A stretch of DNA of 32,668 nt, taken from Synechococcales cyanobacterium VAR_4_metabat_354 (GTDB taxonomy: Bacteria; Cyanobacteriota; Cyanobacteriia; Cyanobacteriales; Chamaesiphonaceae). The stretch lies in contig JANOQI010000027.1 of assembly GCA_031414775.1 (NCBI GenBank), positions 1 through 32,668 of the forward strand, in the 5' to 3' direction. Shown here one piece after another: positions 6,225-32,668 of this stretch (its first letter is position 1; each line of letters opens with the position of its first letter). The notes beneath the pieces are model-generated. The model was not told the origin of the DNA, made no database searches, and saw nothing but the letters and a program-made list of their open reading frames with translations. A program made the position numbers and the translations under genes.

Positions 6225-6840
6225 TCCCTCCGAGGTAAGACAGTAAGAGGTCAGATACCTCTTGGGCAAATTGGCCATCTTGCACAAAATCAGGATGCTC
6301 AATAACGGCGGAGTGACATAATGACTCTACCGTACAACTCAGAATGAAAACCGTCATTTCTAAATTTTGGGGTTGAATAAGATCGCTCCAGTGAGTTAGA
6401 TATGCTCGTAATAATTTGGTGATGCGCTCATTAGCCTGTTGTATTTGTGGCGATCGCTCGGAGCGGGGAATTTCTTCACTGAGTACTTGATGGAGTTTTG
6501 GATCGATCGCATGGGCAGCAATAACTACTTTTACTAAGGCCGGGATCGCTATTGCTGGCGGCGAGTCAAACAAATGATTCAGGTTAGTTTCCGCTAGCTC
6601 AGCCATTTGTTGCGCGTGCTGTTCTATTAATGCCGTCATTAATGCCTCTTTATTAGGAAAGTATTGATACAAGGAACCCACGCTAATCCCAGCTCGTTCG
6701 GCAATGTGATTGGTATTGGCTTTGTCGTAACCTTCCTCGATCAAAATATGAGTAGTTGCTTCTAAAATAGCTTCAACTGTCAGGCGCGATCGATCTTGTT
6801 GGGGTAGTTTGCGGGGCTTGGCGGAACGGGGACGGGGCAT
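6214..6840 (-). CDS. TetR/AcrR family transcriptional regulator
   Basis: PQQDRSRLTVEAILEA...TNHIAERAGISVGSLYQYFPNKEAL helix-turn-helix; ATG at 6840. Confidence 0.9.
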   Translation of the reverse strand: MPRPRSAKPRKLPQQDRSRLTVEAILEATTHILIEEGYDKANTNHIAERAGISVGSLYQYFPNKEALMTALIEQHAQQMAELAETNLNHLFDSPPAIAIPALVKVVIAAHAIDPKLHQVLSEEIPRSERSPQIQQANERITKLLRAYLTHWSDLIQPQNLEMTVFILSCTVESLCHSAVIEHPDFVQDGQFAQEVSDLLLSYLGGING

Positions 6841-25655: not shown

Positions 25656-25877
25656 ATGAATCAAGAGCCTTCAGAAATAGCATCGGTTGATATGTGGCAA
25701 TCTAAACCCTGGTGGTGCCAGCCTTGGACAATTATCCTCACCGGGATTTTGTTGATAGCCGGGAGCTGGTTTTTGTTACATACCCTGTGGTTGACTGTGC
25801 CTTTGGGAATTTTGATTGTGGTGTGGTGGACTTATTTTTTGCTTTTGGTACCCCGGCTTTTACGGGGAGGGCAATAG
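25656..25877 (+). CDS. Small cyanobacterial membrane protein (DUF6737-like)
   Basis: W..KPWWCQPW.I.LTG followed by two hydrophobic helices. Confidence 0.7.
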   Translation: MNQEPSEIASVDMWQSKPWWCQPWTIILTGILLIAGSWFLLHTLWLTVPLGILIVVWWTYFLLLVPRLLRGGQ

Positions 25878-26963
25878 TAGGCTTTTAATTTGTTTAGCTC
25901 GGTTGCCTAGACATACTTTTAGCAAGTGAGTATTACTTGGTGCTGACAAAGGATATTCAATTAATATTAAGACCTTAAACAGAAAGAAAGAGAGACCAGT
26001 CGTAACCGGCTGGAAGAAATTACTGGACAATAGTTTTCCGTATTGTCGTACTACCCAGTCATTTTCAATTAGTTGCCAGATCGATGCTGGTAAAGGTGTA
26101 CCTAGCAGATCATGAGTGACGAGCAGGGCGATCAGCAATAGCCGCTGACAGCCGCTCGTAGTTGCTCGATCGATCACGGTTTCCCATCGTGGCGCTGAGT
26201 AATGACCCACTAATTCAGCAATATCAGAGACTTTTGCTAATATGCATTTTTTAGCATAAGAATCTTTCACAATTTGGATAGATAACACTAGTAAAAGGTC
26301 TTCCATACTGAAACTTTGAACAGTGTTATCTAATAAAACAACACTTTGGCAACGCTGAATACAACCTTTAAAATCAAGACGAAATGGATAGTAAGATTGA
26401 GCGATACCTATATGGAGGTCAATATTAACTCCCTGATCAAGATGAATAAATGTTTGTTCCCATTCATATTGATCATATAATTGATAACCCTTAGAAATCA
26501 GTAATGCCTCGGATTTAGTCACATCTTGAGGGTCAATCAATAAATCTAAATCCTGAAATTGACGGAAGCAAATATCTCCGTACACAGCAGATGCTAGTAC
26601 TGCTCCCTTATAAGGAATTACTTGAATATTTTCAGCAGCAAACCAAGCTAAAATCTCTAACAATTTACTGCTTAAAGACATGGAAATAACGATGTTCGTG
26701 TAATTTATTTCCCTCAACTGCCAGGAAATACTATCGGGAATTAGTTCACCACCGACCTGCTGTAAGTTCCGATAAAGTAAAGGAATAACCTGCTGATAAA
26801 TGGCTAATTCAATTAATTTATCCCAGTCGATCTTTTGCTGAATTAATAACCTAATTTGCTGATTAACAGTCTCATCAATATGCGTGCGAGCACAGCACAA
26901 TAATAGCTGCTCTTCGATCGAACTATTCAACATCACGCTAGATTGTAGATATGAAGATGTCAT
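25860..26963 (-). CDS. Uncharacterised nucleotidyltransferase (NTP_transf_5-like, lasso-cluster associated)
   Basis: IDW..L..LA, IPYKG..LA..YGD...R.F.DLDLLI and IDLH; starts 3 bp after the ABC transporter stop. Confidence 0.8.
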   Translation of the reverse strand: MTSSYLQSSVMLNSSIEEQLLLCCARTHIDETVNQQIRLLIQQKIDWDKLIELAIYQQVIPLLYRNLQQVGGELIPDSISWQLREINYTNIVISMSLSSKLLEILAWFAAENIQVIPYKGAVLASAVYGDICFRQFQDLDLLIDPQDVTKSEALLISKGYQLYDQYEWEQTFIHLDQGVNIDLHIGIAQSYYPFRLDFKGCIQRCQSVVLLDNTVQSFSMEDLLLVLSIQIVKDSYAKKCILAKVSDIAELVGHYSAPRWETVIDRATTSGCQRLLLIALLVTHDLLGTPLPASIWQLIENDWVVRQYGKLLSSNFFQPVTTGLSFFLFKVLILIEYPLSAPSNTHLLKVCLGNRAKQIKSLLLPSP

Positions 26964-26966
26964 CGG

Positions 26967-28781
26967 TTATCGATAAGGCTCGGCTTGGGTTTCAAATAGA
27001 TCGGCATAAACACCATGCTGCTTCATTAGTGTTTCGTGGGTGCCCTGCTCAATAATAAAGCCTTTATCCATTACATAAATTCGGTCAGCCATTTTGACGG
27101 TGGAGAGACGATGACTAATTAAAATAGCCGTCTGATTGGTGATCAGTTGCCGAAATTTTTGAAATACATCATATTCGGCCTTTGGATCCATCGCACTGGT
27201 CGGTTCATCCAAAACGATTACTTGGGAGTTACGCAAAAAAGCCCGGGCTAAAGCAATTTTTTGCCATTGACCAATACTCAGCTCCTCACCATCATCAAAT
27301 AAGGCACCGAGAATGGTTTCATAGCCTTGGGGTAGACTAGCAATCACCCGTTCAGCTCCCGAACGCTGGGCAGCGGTGCTGACACTGGCGATAGTCTGGG
27401 GCAACTCTGTATTGCCCAACCAAATATTTTCGAGGGCGGTGAGATTGTACTTGGCATAGTCTTGAAAAATCACGCTCATTTGACGGCGTAGATCTGCTGT
27501 TTTAAAGTTTTTTAAGTTAGTGTTATCGATCGATACCGTGCCACTAGTCGGATCGTACAACCGGCAGAGTAATTTCACCAAAGTTGTTTTACCACAACCA
27601 TTCTCGCCAACTAAAGCAATAATTTCGCCAGGGGCAATGCGTAAGTTGATGTTGTGCAAAGACTGGCGGGTGCTATTGGCGTATTTAAAAGAAACCTCCT
27701 CAAACACAATGCCGCTTTGCATGGGACAGGGTAAAACCTGGGGGTGTTCTGGTTCGGCGATCGTCGATTTAAGGTTGAGAAAATCATAGAGGTTGGTAAG
27801 AAAAAGATTATCTTCATACAGTCCCGACAGACTGCCTAAAATACCTTTGAGAGATGACTGACCCCGTTCAAAAGCCTGGTAGTACAGGAAAAGATCACCA
27901 ATTTTTAGAACGCCTTGTAAGGTTTGGTTCACAATAAAAGCATAAGCAGCCAGAATCATCACACTACTAATGAGCTGTGCTCCCAGTCCAGCGATCGATC
28001 TCTTGGCAGCAATAGAGACCTCTCCCCGCCATAGCTCCCGGCGCAACCGCTGAAAGCGCTCCCGAAACAGCTGACCAAGATTAAATAGCCGTACTTCTTT
28101 AGCAAACAGGACGCTGGTCAGCAGCCAATTAATGTAATCTGTTTGGCGCTCAATTACGGTCTTTTCACGGTTCCAATTAAAGAGCAGGTTGGCATACTTC
28201 ATTCTCACTAAGACAGACGGCAGAGCCGCTACTAAGAGAATGCTAGCAATGCCCCAATGTAGAGATAGCAACAGTACTACCATAGCGCTGAGCGAAATAC
28301 TTTGTTGAGCAACTTCGATCAGCTTTTGCAGAACTTGATTAGGCCGATAGGTGGCTTCTTCTTGTGCTCTTTTAAGGGTGTCTAAGTATTGAGGCGTTTC
28401 ATAGTAGCCTAAATCCATCTCGATCGATTTAGCCTGGAGCAGGTCACTCATGGCATCATTCACCCGATGAGACTGGCCAGTATTTACCAGGTCTGCCAAA
28501 AAAGTACAGAAGTCGGAGATGAGCGTGACCACACCTATCAGTACTAGTAACACTATTAGTTTCTGGGCAGCTGCTTGCGGCTGGGTGGTTAATCCCAAGG
28601 TCAGGGCATCAATAATTAGCTTGGTCAGATACAACGAGCAAAGCGGCAAAATCCCTTGAACGATTAGTAAACCCACCCGAGCGAGTGTCCAGCGGGGAGC
28701 ACTGTTCCAAACCATGCGGATTGCTGGCCCCAAATGTAAAGCCTGGGTAAGTTTAGAAATCAACTGCTGCGGTGAGGCCAT
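26967..28781 (-). CDS. ABC exporter (fused permease/ATPase, no C39 peptidase domain)
   Basis: N-terminal TM helices, Walker A GENGCGKTT, signature LSIGQWQK, Walker B VIVLDEP and ISHR. Confidence 0.9.
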   Translation of the reverse strand: MASPQQLISKLTQALHLGPAIRMVWNSAPRWTLARVGLLIVQGILPLCSLYLTKLIIDALTLGLTTQPQAAAQKLIVLLVLIGVVTLISDFCTFLADLVNTGQSHRVNDAMSDLLQAKSIEMDLGYYETPQYLDTLKRAQEEATYRPNQVLQKLIEVAQQSISLSAMVVLLLSLHWGIASILLVAALPSVLVRMKYANLLFNWNREKTVIERQTDYINWLLTSVLFAKEVRLFNLGQLFRERFQRLRRELWRGEVSIAAKRSIAGLGAQLISSVMILAAYAFIVNQTLQGVLKIGDLFLYYQAFERGQSSLKGILGSLSGLYEDNLFLTNLYDFLNLKSTIAEPEHPQVLPCPMQSGIVFEEVSFKYANSTRQSLHNINLRIAPGEIIALVGENGCGKTTLVKLLCRLYDPTSGTVSIDNTNLKNFKTADLRRQMSVIFQDYAKYNLTALENIWLGNTELPQTIASVSTAAQRSGAERVIASLPQGYETILGALFDDGEELSIGQWQKIALARAFLRNSQVIVLDEPTSAMDPKAEYDVFQKFRQLITNQTAILISHRLSTVKMADRIYVMDKGFIIEQGTHETLMKQHGVYADLFETQAEPYR

Positions 28782-28799
28782 AGAAAAACACTGCTGACT

Positions 28800-29921
28800 T
28801 TAAGCAAAGCGGCCAATTAGTTTCTGGACAAAATTGATGGCTTTTTGCTGGTTAGGAAAAAGCTGTGGATATTTTTGGCAGAGGTTATCGCTTAAAACTT
28901 GGACAGAAACCGTGCCGTCGCTACCAGATAAAACCTCCAAAGCCGCCTCACCTTGCAGATTTTTTTGGGGCTGATAATCTAGGGAGGTCTTTTTGAGAGA
29001 GGCCAAAGACATCGGCATCGAGAAAAAAGTAGAGTGAGACTGTTTTGCTTGGGTCGTTTCTACTGTCCAGCTCCAGTCAGCAAAAGGCGGACGCTGCAAG
29101 GTAAAAGTAACTCGATCGCCTGCGGTCACGGTGATCGGCGGATCAAGGGGCAGAAAAGCCGAACCCCAGTGCAGTTGTGGTTCGTGGGGCGCTGTCGATA
29201 GCCAATCATTTCCTAACTGCATCTTGAACCAGCCTGCCCAGCCATGACAAAGGCCAGATTCAGTGATGGTGTAATCAACGCTCACCTGACAGTTGGTATC
29301 GGTAGCCTGATGAAAATCGAGGGCAAATAAATCGATCGGATCAGCTAGATAACGAGATTTTTCTAGTTCTTTCCGATAGTAAAGGATTGATTGGCTCACA
29401 TAAGGTCTGGCGACGCTGTGATCAAGACCCAAATGGGGCTGAGACCAGACCTCTAGATCGGCTTCGTAAACTTCTGGTGCACAGACGGGGGCGGCTTGCA
29501 TGACCCCGGCTTGTGGTAACAAAATGCCACCAGGCTTGAGATATCGATCGCGTGCATAAAATAGCGATGGCAGCAGGTCTTCTTCTAATAAAAAGTTACC
29601 GGTGAAAACTGAGGTAATGATATCTACCTTTTCGGGTAGCTCTACTTCTTCGATCGAACCCTGGAGACAAACCACTCGATCGGCCAAACCATTGCTGTGA
29701 GCAATTTCTTTGGCTACCATAATAATATCTTCGGGTTCTACCAAATAAACCCGCTTTGCTCCTAGCTTAGCGGCCAATAAACCATGAATTCCCAGGCCAG
29801 CCCCCACATCCAAAACTACACTTTCTGGTGTGATCACCTGGACTAAGGCTTGGGCATAAACTTCATTGCGGCGGACATCTAACGCCATGGAATGTTGACC
29901 CTGGACTAAGGCGTAGCTCAT
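28800..29921 (-). CDS. PRMT-fold SAM-dependent methyltransferase with a possible C-terminal RRE-like helical domain
   Basis: H..M..D..R...Y..A, VVLDVGAGLG, AAK.GAKRVY.VE, ARDRYLKPGG.L.P, CHG..GWF and LSTAP....LHW parallel the PRMT1-type layout. Confidence 0.8.
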   Translation of the reverse strand: MSYALVQGQHSMALDVRRNEVYAQALVQVITPESVVLDVGAGLGIHGLLAAKLGAKRVYLVEPEDIIMVAKEIAHSNGLADRVVCLQGSIEEVELPEKVDIITSVFTGNFLLEEDLLPSLFYARDRYLKPGGILLPQAGVMQAAPVCAPEVYEADLEVWSQPHLGLDHSVARPYVSQSILYYRKELEKSRYLADPIDLFALDFHQATDTNCQVSVDYTITESGLCHGWAGWFKMQLGNDWLSTAPHEPQLHWGSAFLPLDPPITVTAGDRVTFTLQRPPFADWSWTVETTQAKQSHSTFFSMPMSLASLKKTSLDYQPQKNLQGEAALEVLSGSDGTVSVQVLSDNLCQKYPQLFPNQQKAINFVQKLIGRFA

Positions 29922-30793
29922 TGCTTTTGGCTCTCTTTTAATAACAAAGCATATACTTCTGGCAGGCGGCTAAAATCGTGGGGATAGATCAGTCGCTGCA
30001 CTGGACAACGATTTACCAACTGGACATAAGCATCCAATAACCGAGGATTGCGATCGATAAAACGACTGACATCGTAACCATGAGTTAATAATTCAAAAAT
30101 TCCTTGTGCGGGTGGAATAGCTTCCAGCCGAATAGACTCGGTGTCCAGTTCGGGGTTAGCGAGCAAATACAAGCCGCCCAATGGTAAAGGTTCTTGTTGA
30201 TAAGTACCACCCAAATGGGTTTCTGGATGATAGAAAATTTTGTAATCGGTGGCTTGGGAAGCATCTAAACCTAGCAATTCACCTGTTTCTGGATATAATT
30301 TGATGCGGGGATTCCCCGGTAAAACATGCCCTTGCTCATCGATCACTAAAACATCATCGGTCACTAATCCAGCTCCATGACTAGTGCAAAAGGCACTTAA
30401 GGTTGATTTACCAGCACCGGAATATCCAATAAAAGCCACAGCTCGACCATTAAGAACTACTGCATTGGCATGAACTGCGATCTGTCCTTGTAAATTCAGA
30501 CAAATCCCGGTCAAAGTACTAGTGAAGCCCAATGTCAACTCTCCCGGATCTAAATCACGGGCATCTTCAGTGACACAGACTTGGATATTCAGACCATCCA
30601 GGCTAACCCAGGCTCCTATTTGATCTGACCAATCCACCCAATGGGGATTTTGGCCAAAGACATCATGCGCCAGATTCTGTCTGACTGGAGAGTTATCCGA
30701 CTTATGCAGTAGCGTTGTTACATACTCAATGGTCAGTCGCTGAAGGCGAGATGCTTGCCTCAACTCACTGTGCAGGATGTCTGAGATGTTCAT
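29918..30793 (-). CDS. HPr-kinase-like P-loop kinase (lasso peptide kinase type)
   Basis: VHANAV, Walker A GYSGAGKST, LVTDD and P.IKL; ATGA overlap with the methyltransferase. Confidence 0.82.
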   Translation of the reverse strand: MNISDILHSELRQASRLQRLTIEYVTTLLHKSDNSPVRQNLAHDVFGQNPHWVDWSDQIGAWVSLDGLNIQVCVTEDARDLDPGELTLGFTSTLTGICLNLQGQIAVHANAVVLNGRAVAFIGYSGAGKSTLSAFCTSHGAGLVTDDVLVIDEQGHVLPGNPRIKLYPETGELLGLDASQATDYKIFYHPETHLGGTYQQEPLPLGGLYLLANPELDTESIRLEAIPPAQGIFELLTHGYDVSRFIDRNPRLLDAYVQLVNRCPVQRLIYPHDFSRLPEVYALLLKESQKQ

Positions 30794-30823
30794 TTTTGAT
30801 TAGATGAAGACAAAAGCCCGGCT

Positions 30824-30856
30824 CAAAATAAAAAACTCGGTCTAAAATCCGAGTTT
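30824..30856 (-). terminator. Stem-loop / partial terminator after the precursor gene
   Basis: AAACTCGG (30833-30840) / CCGAGTTT (30849-30856) IR followed by a T-rich tract on the minus strand. Confidence 0.55.
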
Positions 30857-30902
30857 GCAGTCAAATTGATTATGAAAATGACTTTAGGTAGAATTGTGAT
30901 AC

Positions 30903-31022
30903 CTAACCCATCATCATGGTTCCGCCCATCATGTCTGCATACATGAAACCGCTCATCTGGTTGGTTACGGAGTACAAAGAGCCAAGTTTAGTTAATTGGG
31001 GACTGACGTATTTTTTTAGCAT
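30903..31022 (-). CDS. Lasso-type RiPP precursor peptide, 39 aa: MLKKYVSPQLTKLGSLYSVTN-QMSGFMYADMMGGTMMMG
   Basis: Hand-translated from ATG (31022) to TAG (30903). Leader has YxxPxLxxxG and Thr at -2; Asp is at core position 9. First gene of the operon; TGGTAAAAT extended -10-like element at 31061-31053. Confidence 0.85.
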   Translation of the reverse strand: MLKKYVSPQLTKLGSLYSVTNQMSGFMYADMMGGTMMMG

Positions 31023-31089
31023 GGAGTTATTTACTCTATTGAACTGGATTTCATTTTACCATAACACGCGGATTATTGTTTAGCTTACA

Positions 31090-31141
31090 GGCTTTCATCC
31101 CGACGCTCTACCCGATCGGGTAAAGCGTCGGGATGAAAGCC
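31090..31141. repeat. 52-bp near-perfect palindrome (IS left-end hairpin)
   Basis: GGCTTTCATCCCGACGCT / AGCGTCGGGATGAAAGCC (18 bp perfect) enclosing TACCCG-AT-CGGGTA. Confidence 0.9.
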
Positions 31142-31217
31142 GAGCGAGTTGACGATTACAATTGAGCCGCATAACACGGAGTGTTTGCTATTATTGTTTT
31201 AGAGTAATCAAGGAATC

Positions 31218-32429
31218 ATGCTAAAAGCTGTCAAAGTCCGAATTTACCCCACTAAAGCCCAGCAGATTCATCTTGCTCAGGCTTTTGGTTGTGTGCGTTG
31301 GGTCTGGAATCAGTCTTTGAGCGTAATGACCGCGACATATCAAGAGACGGGGAAAGGCGTTACAGCCATGACCATGAAGAAATCTATACCCTTGTGGAAA
31401 ACAGAATTTGAATGGCTTTCTGAGTGCTACTCACAATGCCTTCAGCAATCAGTTCTTAATTTGGGCATAGCTTTTGGCAATTTTTTCGATGGTCGGGCAA
31501 TGTATCCAACTTTTAAAAAGCGCCAAGGAAAACAATCAATTCAGTTTCCGCAAAACGTCAAAGTTTTAAGTGATTCTGAAATTAAGTTTCCAGGCAATTT
31601 TGGTACTGTCAAGGCAAAGGTACATCGGGATATTAACGGCAAGGTTAAGACCGTAACCGTGAGTAAAAATCCTGATGGTAGATACTTTGCTTCGATGCTT
31701 GTGGACGACGGAATTGATAACCCTGAAGCCAGCAAAGACGGTGATGTAATTGGTATCGATCTAGGTCTAACCGATTTTGCAGTAACCTCCAATGGCTCCA
31801 AATATCAGCACCCGAGAGCTACTAAGAAGTATGAGAGAAACCTAAAGCGTAAGCAAAAAAAGCTATCTCGTAAAAAAGAAAAGACGACTAGCAATCGTCG
31901 AAAAGCTAAGCTTGCAGTGGCTAAGGTTCATTCCAAAATCAAAAGAGTCCGCGAAGATTTCCTACACAAGCTATCGCGCAAGATAGTAGACGAAAACCAA
32001 GTCATAGTGGTAGAGAATCTGGCAGTAAGAAACATGGTGAAAAATCATTGTCTAGCCAAGGCAATTTCTGATGCTGGCTGGGGAATGTTTTGCACCATGC
32101 TCAAATACAAAGCTGAAATGGTGGGTAAGGTCTATCTAGAAATAGGTCGATTTTTTGCATCTACTCATCTTTGCTCGAACACTTTGAAGTCACTGCCAAA
32201 GATGGATCTATCGGTGCGTGAATTCGATTGCCCTCATTGCGGACAAAGGCACGATAGAGATATTAACGCTGCGATAAACATCAAAAATGAAGGCTTGCGC
32301 GTATTGACGTTGGGAACCAGCGTTATTGCTCCTGAAGGCTACGTAAGACCAAAACAGTATGGGCGCAAGTCTACTACTGTAGAGGCTGTGGTCGTTGAAG
32401 GGAGAAGCCCACGCTCTACCGCAAGGTGA
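31218..32429 (+). CDS. tnpB: RNA-guided endonuclease TnpB
   Basis: K.RIYPT..Q...L...FGC.R.VWN N-terminal HTH; RuvC-I GIDLG, RuvC-II VVENL, RuvC-III DRDINAAINI; CPHCG. Confidence 0.93.
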   Translation: MLKAVKVRIYPTKAQQIHLAQAFGCVRWVWNQSLSVMTATYQETGKGVTAMTMKKSIPLWKTEFEWLSECYSQCLQQSVLNLGIAFGNFFDGRAMYPTFKKRQGKQSIQFPQNVKVLSDSEIKFPGNFGTVKAKVHRDINGKVKTVTVSKNPDGRYFASMLVDDGIDNPEASKDGDVIGIDLGLTDFAVTSNGSKYQHPRATKKYERNLKRKQKKLSRKKEKTTSNRRKAKLAVAKVHSKIKRVREDFLHKLSRKIVDENQVIVVENLAVRNMVKNHCLAKAISDAGWGMFCTMLKYKAEMVGKVYLEIGRFFASTHLCSNTLKSLPKMDLSVREFDCPHCGQRHDRDINAAINIKNEGLRVLTLGTSVIAPEGYVRPKQYGRKSTTVEAVVVEGRSPRSTAR

Positions 32430-32465
32430 GCGTCGGGTAGTTCACTCTAGAGATCATTGCTAGAC
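32300..32465 (+). ncRNA. Predicted omega/reRNA (scaffold overlapping the tnpB 3' end plus flanking guide)
   Basis: Inferred from established TnpB biology. Hairpin ACGCTCTACC-GCAA-GGTGAGCGT precedes the TTCAC end; the guide would be TCTAGAGATCATTGCTAGAC. The 5' boundary is a guess. Confidence 0.5.
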
Positions 32466-32667
32466 GCTGTTCGGTGATTTTGAGTGCTGGACTCATTGCG
32501 CTTGCTTTGGTAAGTGTGAAGCCCAAAAGTCTTCCAGGTAAATGATTGTGGACTTCATCAAACCCATAGTTATCTTTGATATGGTTTGCTAATATATAGG
32601 ATAGCAGTGGCGGTATGGCGTTGCCGATTTGTTGGATTTTTTCTGAGGTGTTGCCCAGAAACCGGAA
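32416..32667 (-). CDS. C-terminal end of a second C5-cytosine DNA methyltransferase (partial, runs off the window)
   Basis: Hand translation FRFLGNTSEKIQQIGNAIPPLLSYILANHIK...AMISRVNYPTLTLR* contains motif X (QIGNA.PP); the stop lies inside the IS right end. Confidence 0.75.
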   Translation of the reverse strand, partial: FRFLGNTSEKIQQIGNAIPPLLSYILANHIKDNYGFDEVHNHLPGRLLGFTLTKASAMSPALKITEQRLAMISRVNYPTLTLR

Positions 32668-32668
32668 G

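Follow-up and report, generated by a model that had tools for sequence, protein, structure and literature searches.

The window analysed here (a 32,668-nt stretch of cyanobacterial DNA) carries part of what appears to be a complete lasso peptide pathway. Judged from sequence, there is about an even chance that its PRMT-fold enzyme has been retooled from arginine to methionine and acts as a peptidyl-Met S-methyltransferase yielding sulfonium lasso peptides. Its co-occurrence with methionine-rich peptides suggests methionine sulfur as the methyl acceptor.

Layout of the lasso peptide cluster

The first-pass annotation had described five co-oriented genes as a new RiPP system. All five ORFs lie on the minus strand at the coordinates listed here, and the 4-bp overlap, 18-bp gap and 3-bp gap between the last four genes were exact on re-measurement.

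25860..26963, minus strand: NTP_transf_5 nucleotidyltransferase-like protein, 367 aa (E 2.5e-55)
26967..28781, minus strand: ABC exporter, 604 aa (ABC_tran and ABC_membrane; no peptidase-domain match)
28800..29921, minus strand: PRMT-fold SAM methyltransferase, 373 aa (PRMT_C E 3e-13), proposed Met S-methyltransferase
29918..30793, minus strand: lasso peptide kinase of HPr-kinase-like type, 291 aa (PF07475 at 22.1 bits against a cut-off of 33.3)
30903..31022, minus strand: 39-aa lasso precursor A, with the leader in aa 1-21 and a core of 18 aa containing 7 Met (ring predicted between Gln1 and Asp9)
31084..32445, plus strand: IS200/IS605-family element (tnpB 31218-32429), outside the pathway

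Genes for B1, B2 and the cyclase were absent from the window and were found on another contig (i.e. C20) of the same genome.

G000:C20:59926-60426: lasso B2, leader peptidase (NF033537 103 bits, cut-off 33)
G000:C20:60468-60773: lasso B1, RRE (PqqD 57.6 bits, over cut-off)
G000:C20:60828-62684: asparagine-synthetase-like cyclase C (PF00733 113 bits)

The best NCBIfam model for the cyclase was lasso cyclase NF033535 (E 2e-71; 241 bits, under the cut-off of 525). These three genes sit at the end of C20, and the same genes adjoin the precursor in relatives, with an uninterrupted, contiguous cluster in four close ones (L009, L010, L011 and L015). The L009 spacer follows C20 until 62735 and continues directly in the window from 31083, no gap separating the two stretches. 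Two insertion sequences separate the cyclase from the precursor in this genome, the IS200/IS605 insertion point lying 61 bp upstream of the precursor start, and the proposed layout is B2-B1-C-(IS)-(IS)-A-kinase-MT-ABC-NTase. All eight ORFs of the pathway (B2, B1, C, A, kinase, MT, ABC and NTase) are intact. Among the 55 metagenome loci of at least 4 kb carrying a methyltransferase homologue, 47 had a B1, B2 or cyclase-like gene.

The tailoring enzymes do co-travel with a lasso-type precursor, as had been claimed. Rather than forming a new system, the five genes constitute the tailoring half of a lasso peptide pathway from a cyanobacterium, in a complete canonical cluster (B2-B1-C-A-kinase-MT-ABC-NTase) split here by insertion sequences. 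A stand-alone five-gene system making a linear RiPP independently of the lasso core genes was rejected because B2, B1 and C were located on C20 and the junction is exact; it is very improbable, even though cyclase-less kinase RiPPs exist (LPPs, PMC13381572) and cyclase-less kinase loci were observed (L110, L111, L114 and L118). The genome's single B1/B2/C set, with no other credible precursor, and the conserved ring Asp at position 8 or 9 also argue against it.

The place of the kinase and nucleotidyltransferase in lasso tailoring, as first proposed, has published precedents in psm and bsf; the paeninodin/pseudomycoidin model of C-terminal Ser phosphorylation does not fit because the core ends in Gly. 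The HPr-kinase-like label was likewise upheld in part, with the His-Lys-Asp-Asp set present (H108, K129, D146 and D147) and the PF07475 match weak and below cut-off. The kinase scored 29% to a kinase of a paeninodin-family cluster. The NTP_transf_5 protein is the only copy in the genome and has the same predicted role class as PsmN and BsfN.

The available text on the bsf cluster of Bradymonas sediminis (A, B1, B2, C, D, BsfK and BsfN; PMC10368454) describes a similar set of split B1/B2, cyclase, ABC exporter, HPr-like kinase and predicted nucleotidyltransferase, in which BsfK phosphorylates ring Ser3, a residue also found in this core. According to that text, bsf differs in having no methyltransferase among its seven listed genes and an Ile(-2) rather than a Thr(-2) leader. 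The paeninodin (pade) and pseudomycoidin (psm) clusters share the His-Lys-Asp-Asp kinase, a PsmN-like nucleotidyltransferase, B1, B2 and C, and differ in phosphorylating a C-terminal Ser; the accessible portion of PMC9266682 mentions no PRMT-fold enzyme for them. Kinase and nucleotidyltransferase are known chemistry, common in cyanobacterial lasso clusters, and are not distinctive here because 22 and 13, respectively, of the 24 methyltransferase-less control loci carry them. The novelty of the cluster is the methyltransferase and the remaining genes are ordinary.

The precursor and its methionine-rich core

30833..30856, minus strand: terminator-like hairpin and T tract in the precursor/kinase interval (computed; putative function)
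30906..30959, minus strand: predicted core peptide, read from the sequence with the cleavage site placed by the Thr(-2) rule and relatives
31053..31082, minus strand: promoter-like site (9/12 consensus, extended -10 TG; consensus match only)

The lasso-type assignment was borne out by a YxxPxL motif (Y5-x-x-P8-x-L10) and a Thr at -2 (T20), both conserved in relatives, with a score of 13.5 bits against the lasso leader model NF033521 (below the cut-off of 19). A genome-wide leader-motif search returned five matches, the precursor being the only credible ORF. As compared to L009, eight codons differ silently and one changes a residue. A leader-bearing ORF was present in 8/8 genome loci examined. 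On these two sequence comparisons, i.e. the mostly silent changes and the recurrent ORFs, the precursor is a real gene. The core contains Ser3, Tyr7, Asp9, Thr14, Met at positions 2, 6, 10, 11, 15, 16 and 17 and a C-terminal Gly, lacks Arg, Lys, Asn and Cys, and has its sole Gln at position 1. Asp, present here as ring residue Asp9 and so within the span (core positions 7-9) used for the acidic ring residue of lasso peptides, occupies core position 8 or 9 in 17 of the 18 clade cores listed.

The stem-loop reported downstream of the precursor was recovered as a terminator-like hairpin with a T tract (30856-30833), which is also kept in L009. One hairpin was found as compared to a shuffle mean of 0.4, and the whole 109-nt precursor-kinase spacer folds modestly better than shuffles (z -1.49). 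The promoter-like site lies between the insertion point and the precursor (3 sites found vs 1.4 expected).

The two insertions and Gln1 may silence the pathway in this strain. A silent or decaying copy, which would be compatible with Met S-methylation by the family, is a tentative proposal: the stronger promoter-like site of L009 (10/12, 6808-6837) is cut off from the precursor here and Gln1 stands in place of Ala, but the eight ORFs are intact, the second promoter-like site stays with the precursor and residue 1 varies among relatives (Ala, Ser, Gly, Arg, Asn or Gln). An N-terminal Gln could cyclise to pyroglutamate. Assembly error as the source of Gln1 was rejected, a contig from run X1 matching 30400-31697 with 0 differences, although this DNA may itself derive from X1, which is then not independent.

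A check for Met-rich precursors co-occurring with the methyltransferase had been suggested, and the Met-rich core proved to be a family trait. Met was present in 37/39 distinct cores with the enzyme as compared to 1/34 cyanobacterial cores without it (chance expectations, 12.2 and 12.7, respectively). Core Met frequencies were 13.2% and 0.1% against a background of 1.7-1.8%. These core counts leave out L149 (a distant enzyme subfamily whose core ends in Met) and L012 (core unparsed but with Met), the latter being included in the locus-level count of 37/40 with and 1/24 without the enzyme. The main control is all cyanobacterial, and only 24 of the 40 enzyme-less B2 loci yielded a precursor; Met was also found in 0/6 plasmid-borne cores from other phyla (read by eye). 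Met positions in enzyme-associated cores peak at +5 and +6 relative to the ring Asp, and C-terminal residues vary freely.

Nested within the cyclase clade of the present cluster, as the starred sister to L030, is locus L131, in which the enzyme has been lost and the core is Met-free. Tree-independent pairs on starred branches of the cyclase tree, a quick tree, all agreed (n=4, p 0.125), a number too small to reach significance, and Fisher p values overstate the association because these pairs number only four. Exceptions were L059, which combines an intact-looking enzyme with a Met-free core, and L037 and L038, which have Met-free cores, a split enzyme and no cyclase in the locus. The covariation identifies the recognised residue and not the methylated atom.

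Met richness could instead serve the product (through Cu(I)/Ag(I) binding or by scavenging oxidants), with the enzyme methylating an Asn/Gln amide, a terminus, a kinase-installed phosphate or sugar, or a different protein. Copper binding is known for Met-rich segments in the part of the literature available, side-chain amide methylation is known for AerE/PoyE, and Asn is mildly enriched (34/39 cores with vs 22/34 without the enzyme); L059 would no longer be anomalous. We consider this rather unlikely: Asn is absent from this core, the sole Gln is taken up as ring position 1, the C-terminal residues are freely variable, and the loss of Met in nested, enzyme-less L131 and its absence from 33/34 control cores are left unexplained.

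Fold and candidate substrate of the methyltransferase

28803..29027, minus strand: helical domain at the C-terminus of the methyltransferase (aa 299-373), with a weak resemblance to the helical part of PqqD/RRE

The predicted model (pLDDT 91) has the Rossmann and beta-barrel PRMT fold and superposes on eukaryotic PRMT structures with Z 32.9 and rmsd 1.9 over 292 aligned residues (28% identity). It shares with PRMT3 (2fyt), CARM1, PRMT2 and PRMT6 this fold, the second Glu and the His-Trp pair, and differs in an extra C-terminal helical domain, its bacterial origin and its encoding beside an Arg-free precursor. In the double-E loop, alignment to CARM1 places V105 at the first Glu and E114 at the second, so that one of the two Glu residues is present. 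In a set of 239 close homologues, Val occupies position 105 in 88% and Glu does so in none, with high conservation of E114 (98%), N109 (99%) and D115 (99%); in the THW loop, His (98%) and Trp (100%) are kept (His251-Trp252 here) and Thr is mostly Leu.

PCMT was not among the nine Pfam matches, the best family being PRMT_C; no RiPP methyltransferase was among the top solved-structure matches listed; ESM Atlas matches bore generic PrmA/PRMT_C names only; and no relatives were found in the viral contigs or plasmids searched. The C-terminal domain consists of helices only, whereas an RRE has three strands and three helices, and its fold search ranked PqqD first (Z 5.3, rmsd 4.0, 52 aligned) and lasso B1 second (Z 4.8). 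A weak PqqD match was present in 11/36 homologues. A full RRE in this tail is doubtful, the fold match being weak and the hhalign probability to B1 not significant (0.7%).

It is highly improbable that the enzyme is a genuine arginine methyltransferase with the peptide or a cell protein as its substrate. All best sequence and fold matches are PRMTs and Arg occurs in 10/39 cores; the natural core of L013 is an Arg-containing example. The first Glu of the double-E loop binds guanidinium (PMC8226133) and is Val here; there is no Arg in this precursor and no enrichment with the enzyme (13/34 cores without it contain Arg), although these two points hold only if the precursor is the substrate. Arginine was rejected as the substrate on this evidence.

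Methylation of a backbone amide at or next to Met, with the side chain serving for recognition only, would explain the covariation equally well in the same lasso pathway. PRMT-fold enzymes are N-methyltransferases, Glu114 and His251 remain available as potential bases, and PRMT-like domains are found in peptide assembly lines of bacteria, as described in the available text of PMC3417536. This alternative is nonetheless unlikely, as amide N-methylation is chemically hard. A thioether needs no deprotonation, consistent with the lost first Glu. Borosins are the known RiPP backbone methylases, and their fold differs from that of PRMTs.

The closest chemical precedent is longipeptin A, a lasso peptide with a sulfonium at Met13, five residues past the ring Asp (PMC10664482). 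The sections of PMC10664482 and PMC11285071 available describe Met sulfonium as unprecedented in RiPPs except for longipeptin A, with an only predicted enzyme. This is LopH, the only proposed lasso Met S-methyltransferase in that account and itself unproven. Tail Met S-methylation is the chemistry proposed here; as described there, LopH has a predicted MTHFR-like SAM-binding domain rather than a PRMT fold, and longipeptin A has a single Met and P450 crosslinks, with no kinase or nucleotidyltransferase. LasF/StspM (C-terminal ester) and TceM/LihM (aspartimide) also provide SAM-dependent lasso peptide tailoring, but are described as O-methyltransferase and PIMT homologues, unlike this PRMT_C enzyme without a PCMT match. 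In agreement with the first-pass annotation, the literature searches made here found no characterised lasso cluster with a PRMT-fold methyltransferase, and the portions of PMC7470986 and PMC12710340 available contained nothing on this enzyme.

Proposed pathway and its implications

The analysis established the gene content, the PRMT fold, the active-site substitution and the covariation with Met; the chemistry that follows is a proposal. By family knowledge, B1 would bind the YxxPxL leader. The kinase would then phosphorylate a core hydroxyl, either Ser3, as for BsfK, or the Tyr lying two positions ahead of the ring Asp (the cores of L015 lack Ser and Thr), and the NTP_transf_5 protein may cap that phosphate with a sugar or nucleotide, like PsmN. 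The methyltransferase would transfer the methyl of SAM to the sulfur of at least one Met to give S-methylmethionine sulfonium, with Val105 providing an apolar pocket and Glu114 possibly pairing with the cation. B2 would cleave after Asn21, C would close the Gln1-Asp9 ring and the ABC transporter would export a permanently cationic lasso peptide, as expected for these families.

More speculatively, and with some doubt, a widespread bacterial PRMT branch may have swapped arginine for methionine and act repeatedly on Met-rich lasso cores, giving poly-sulfonium (and phospho- or glyco-) products. Lys may be the target in a sister branch whose pocket carries Asp at the equivalent position; that would illustrate substrate switching among bacterial PRMT relatives. 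Eukaryotic PRMTs have been proposed to derive from bacterial peptide methylases (PMC3417536, in the text available).

The enzyme family is a tractable candidate for Met S-methylation, being small, with short natural substrates (here 18 residues, 7 of them Met) and a product recognisable by its neutral loss of 62 Da (Me2S). Should the methyl go to the backbone instead, the enzyme would still represent an undescribed type of RiPP methyltransferase. If the proposed activity is correct, a peptidyl-Met S-methyltransferase family with many natural substrates would be in hand, offering a means of equipping peptides with fixed positive charges or alkylating handles and a first function for the bacterial branch near eukaryotic PRMTs.

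Gene content and the two halves of the cluster

The five co-oriented genes of the first-pass annotation were present as described, with the 4-bp overlap, 18-bp gap and 3-bp gap that couple the last four, and with a terminator-like hairpin (30856-30833) at the stem-loop claimed after the precursor gene.

30903-31022, minus strand: precursor (A)
29918-30793, minus strand: kinase (weak HPr-kinase Pfam match)
28800-29921, minus strand: PRMT-fold methyltransferase (MT; PRMT_C match)
26967-28781, minus strand: ABC exporter (matching Pfam family)
25860-26963, minus strand: nucleotidyltransferase (NTase; NTP_transf_5 match)
25656-25877, plus strand: DUF6737 membrane gene, overlapping the 3' end of the NTase gene by 18 bp

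A convergent arrangement like this last overlap was observed in three close relatives with an uninterrupted cluster (L009, L011, L015). The claimed lasso-type precursor was borne out: the 39-aa ORF carries a YxxPxL motif in its leader, Thr at -2 and, as residue 9 of the core, Asp. It scored 13.5 bits against the curated lasso leader model (cut-off 19). Comparison with the nearest relative revealed eight silent codons and one replacement (Ala to Gln, core position 1), showing at codon level that the ORF is under purifying selection.

The window makes up all of contig C27 of a cyanobacterial genome. The class-defining lasso genes B1 (PqqD-like RRE), B2 (leader peptidase) and cyclase (C) were absent from it, as for a stand-alone linear RiPP. 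This explanation is very improbable. Cyclase, precursor, kinase, B1 and B2 were all present in 8/8 genome loci found with the MT, so that the precursor ORF is conserved in the homologous operons checked; four of the eight had the unbroken order B2-B1-C-A-kinase-MT-ABC-NTase. The window's own genome contains one B2 and one PqqD match, located next to each other where contig C20 ends, beside a gene resembling asparagine synthetase. This B2 passed the lasso B2 model, and the top model for the cyclase was lasso cyclase, with a score below that model's cut-off.

The L009 spacer matched C20 to 62735 and then the window from 31083, with zero gap. An insertion sequence present in multiple copies, which we take to be IS982-type, has one of its ends on C20 beyond this point (62736-62873); a full copy (G000:C16:249899-250874, ~976 bp) encodes a 292-aa transposase, at least 10 contigs are broken by the element and TA precedes all 13 of its ends among those listed. 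The window beyond 31083 is an IS200/IS605 tnpB element. In a contig piece from sequencing run X1, the right end of the tnpB element is followed by the 7-base target repeat plus the opposite end of the multicopy element, and in contigs from runs X5 and X9 the match to the window ended at 31083. The simplest reading is a single cluster in which two insertions, one nested in the other, separate C from A; we infer the contiguity of its halves, as no single piece spans both. The cluster belongs to the lasso class, with core genes on C20; the claim of a new RiPP system is not supported, and the novelty lies in the MT. A promoter-like site was kept on the precursor side of the insertion point and a stronger one, known in L009, was severed from the precursor; silence of this copy is conceivable but rather doubtful.

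The window tail (32324-32668) looks misjoined: X1 depth was ~187 over the window with almost none after 32452, and the X1 contig departs from the tnpB right end into other sequence. The tail encodes a fragment without a Pfam match that resembles the end of a C5 DNA methylase. Separately, L010:3345-4628, in another uninterrupted relative, holds an additional 427-aa gene of unassigned kind between B1 and cyclase.

Kinase and nucleotidyltransferase

B2 matches occurred in 33/401 cyanobacterial genomes. All 41 B2 places outside the window's genome were examined, with the MT in one (L129), and a leader-only profile found control precursors at 24 of the 40 MT-less loci; these 24 had a kinase (22), NTase (13) and cyclase (19). 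The pairing of kinase and NTase, published for psm (PMC9266682) and bsf (PMC10368454), is ordinary among cyanobacterial lasso clusters. BsfK phosphorylates ring Ser3 (PMC10368454), and the window core likewise has Ser3. As Tyr lies two residues ahead of the ring Asp in 12/18 clade cores listed, two of these 12 lacking Ser or Thr, this Tyr may be a second candidate acceptor.

At L015:5954-7035, four precursor genes lie in tandem; their leaders are nearly identical and their Met-rich cores vary. Two of these cores lack Ser/Thr, leaving Tyr as sole hydroxyl for the kinase. Four further cyanobacterial loci (L110, L111, L114, L118) combine B1, two precursors, kinase, B2, ABC and NTase with no cyclase in the region; their Gly/Thr-rich cores have no ring acid and resemble linear phosphorylated RiPPs.

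Distribution, fold and pocket of the methyltransferase

As claimed, the literature searched, made up of open-access main texts, yielded no lasso cluster that has been characterised and includes a PRMT-fold enzyme; bacterial PRMT relatives in peptide-metabolite operons are mentioned in general terms in PMC3417536. Of 5597 candidates, 1465 were related to METHYLTRANSFERASE at E <= 1e-10, and look-alike clusters in the ESM Atlas were most common in Myxococcota, Acidobacteriota and Pseudomonadota. Within cyanobacteria the MT was patchy (9/401 genomes at E <= 1e-20, just two of them close; 4/11 same-genus genomes). Confirmed metagenome loci numbered 142; of the 80 retained, 61 had a B1, B2 or cyclase-like gene (47/55 of loci >= 4 kb), the cyclase calls being by BLAST and able to include AsnB.

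The predicted structure (pLDDT 91) aligned with PRMTs over 292 residues (Z 32.9, rmsd 1.9; next non-PRMT Z 13.8), a fold that would suit arginine as substrate. PRMTs hold the arginine guanidinium with both glutamates of their double-E loop (PMC8226133); the MT has Val105 at the first position and Glu114 at the second. In 239 homologues (>= 38% identity) position 105 was Val in 88% and Ala in 8%, and T107, G108, N109, E114, D115, H251 and W252 were 98-100% conserved. Arg occurred in 10/39 distinct cores with the MT versus 13/34 without, and an arginine substrate is highly unlikely. The last 75 residues are predicted to form a helical domain with weak likeness to PqqD/B1; the profile comparison was not significant.

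A sister PRMT-like subfamily (31-34% identity) shares the lasso architecture (L149:3619-10925, L180:4080-12417, L181:1771-10018). L149 and L180 have Asp at the first double-E position, and all three cores end in Lys-Thr-Ser/Gly or have it close to the end. With one Met each, they are not Met-rich. These three may possibly be Lys-directed.

Methionine in the cores and the proposed reaction

Because the search for precursors used the leader alone, it made no selection on core content. Co-occurrence of the MT with Met-rich precursors, a check put forward in the first-pass annotation, was borne out: Met was present in 37/39 distinct cores with the MT versus 1/34 without (12.2 and 12.7 expected from background), and in 23/25 versus 1/21 after collapse at 50% similarity; no other residue was comparably enriched. 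The MT-less cores (L108-L147) are thus depleted, as if avoiding unprotected Met. At least two Met were found in 31/39 cores with the MT and tail Met in 36/39, with a peak at +5 and +6 past the ring Asp. An additional same-genus locus had a core with six Met. Twelve plasmid regions yielded six leader-like precursors (Bacillota, Pseudomonadota, one archaeon; two weak), with Met in none of their cores.

On a quick cyclase tree (53 rows), MT presence changed six times, at least four on starred branches; L131, nested within the window's clade, lacked both MT and Met. The four independent pairs on starred branches mostly agreed (mean 3.8 across pairings, with none opposite and a median p of 0.125). 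Counter-examples were L059, with MT and a Met-free core, and L037/L038, with a split MT, no cyclase in the locus and Met-free cores.

Longipeptin A carries an S-methylated Met13, five residues past the ring Asp and diagnosed by a 62 Da loss (PMC10664482), matching the +5/+6 peak. Since the arginine anchor is lost, MT presence predicts Met and a lasso-tail precedent is known, methyl transfer to the sulfur of core Met was chosen as the proposed reaction, at roughly even chances. The same covariation would accommodate backbone N-methylation at or beside Met, which appears unlikely. Another reading, with Met serving a metal or redox function and the methyl placed on another target, has a similarly low likelihood. 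LopH, the proposed and unproven longipeptin enzyme, has a predicted fold different from the PRMT fold of the window MT. If Met S-methylation is correct, the MT would therefore be a solution separate from LopH.
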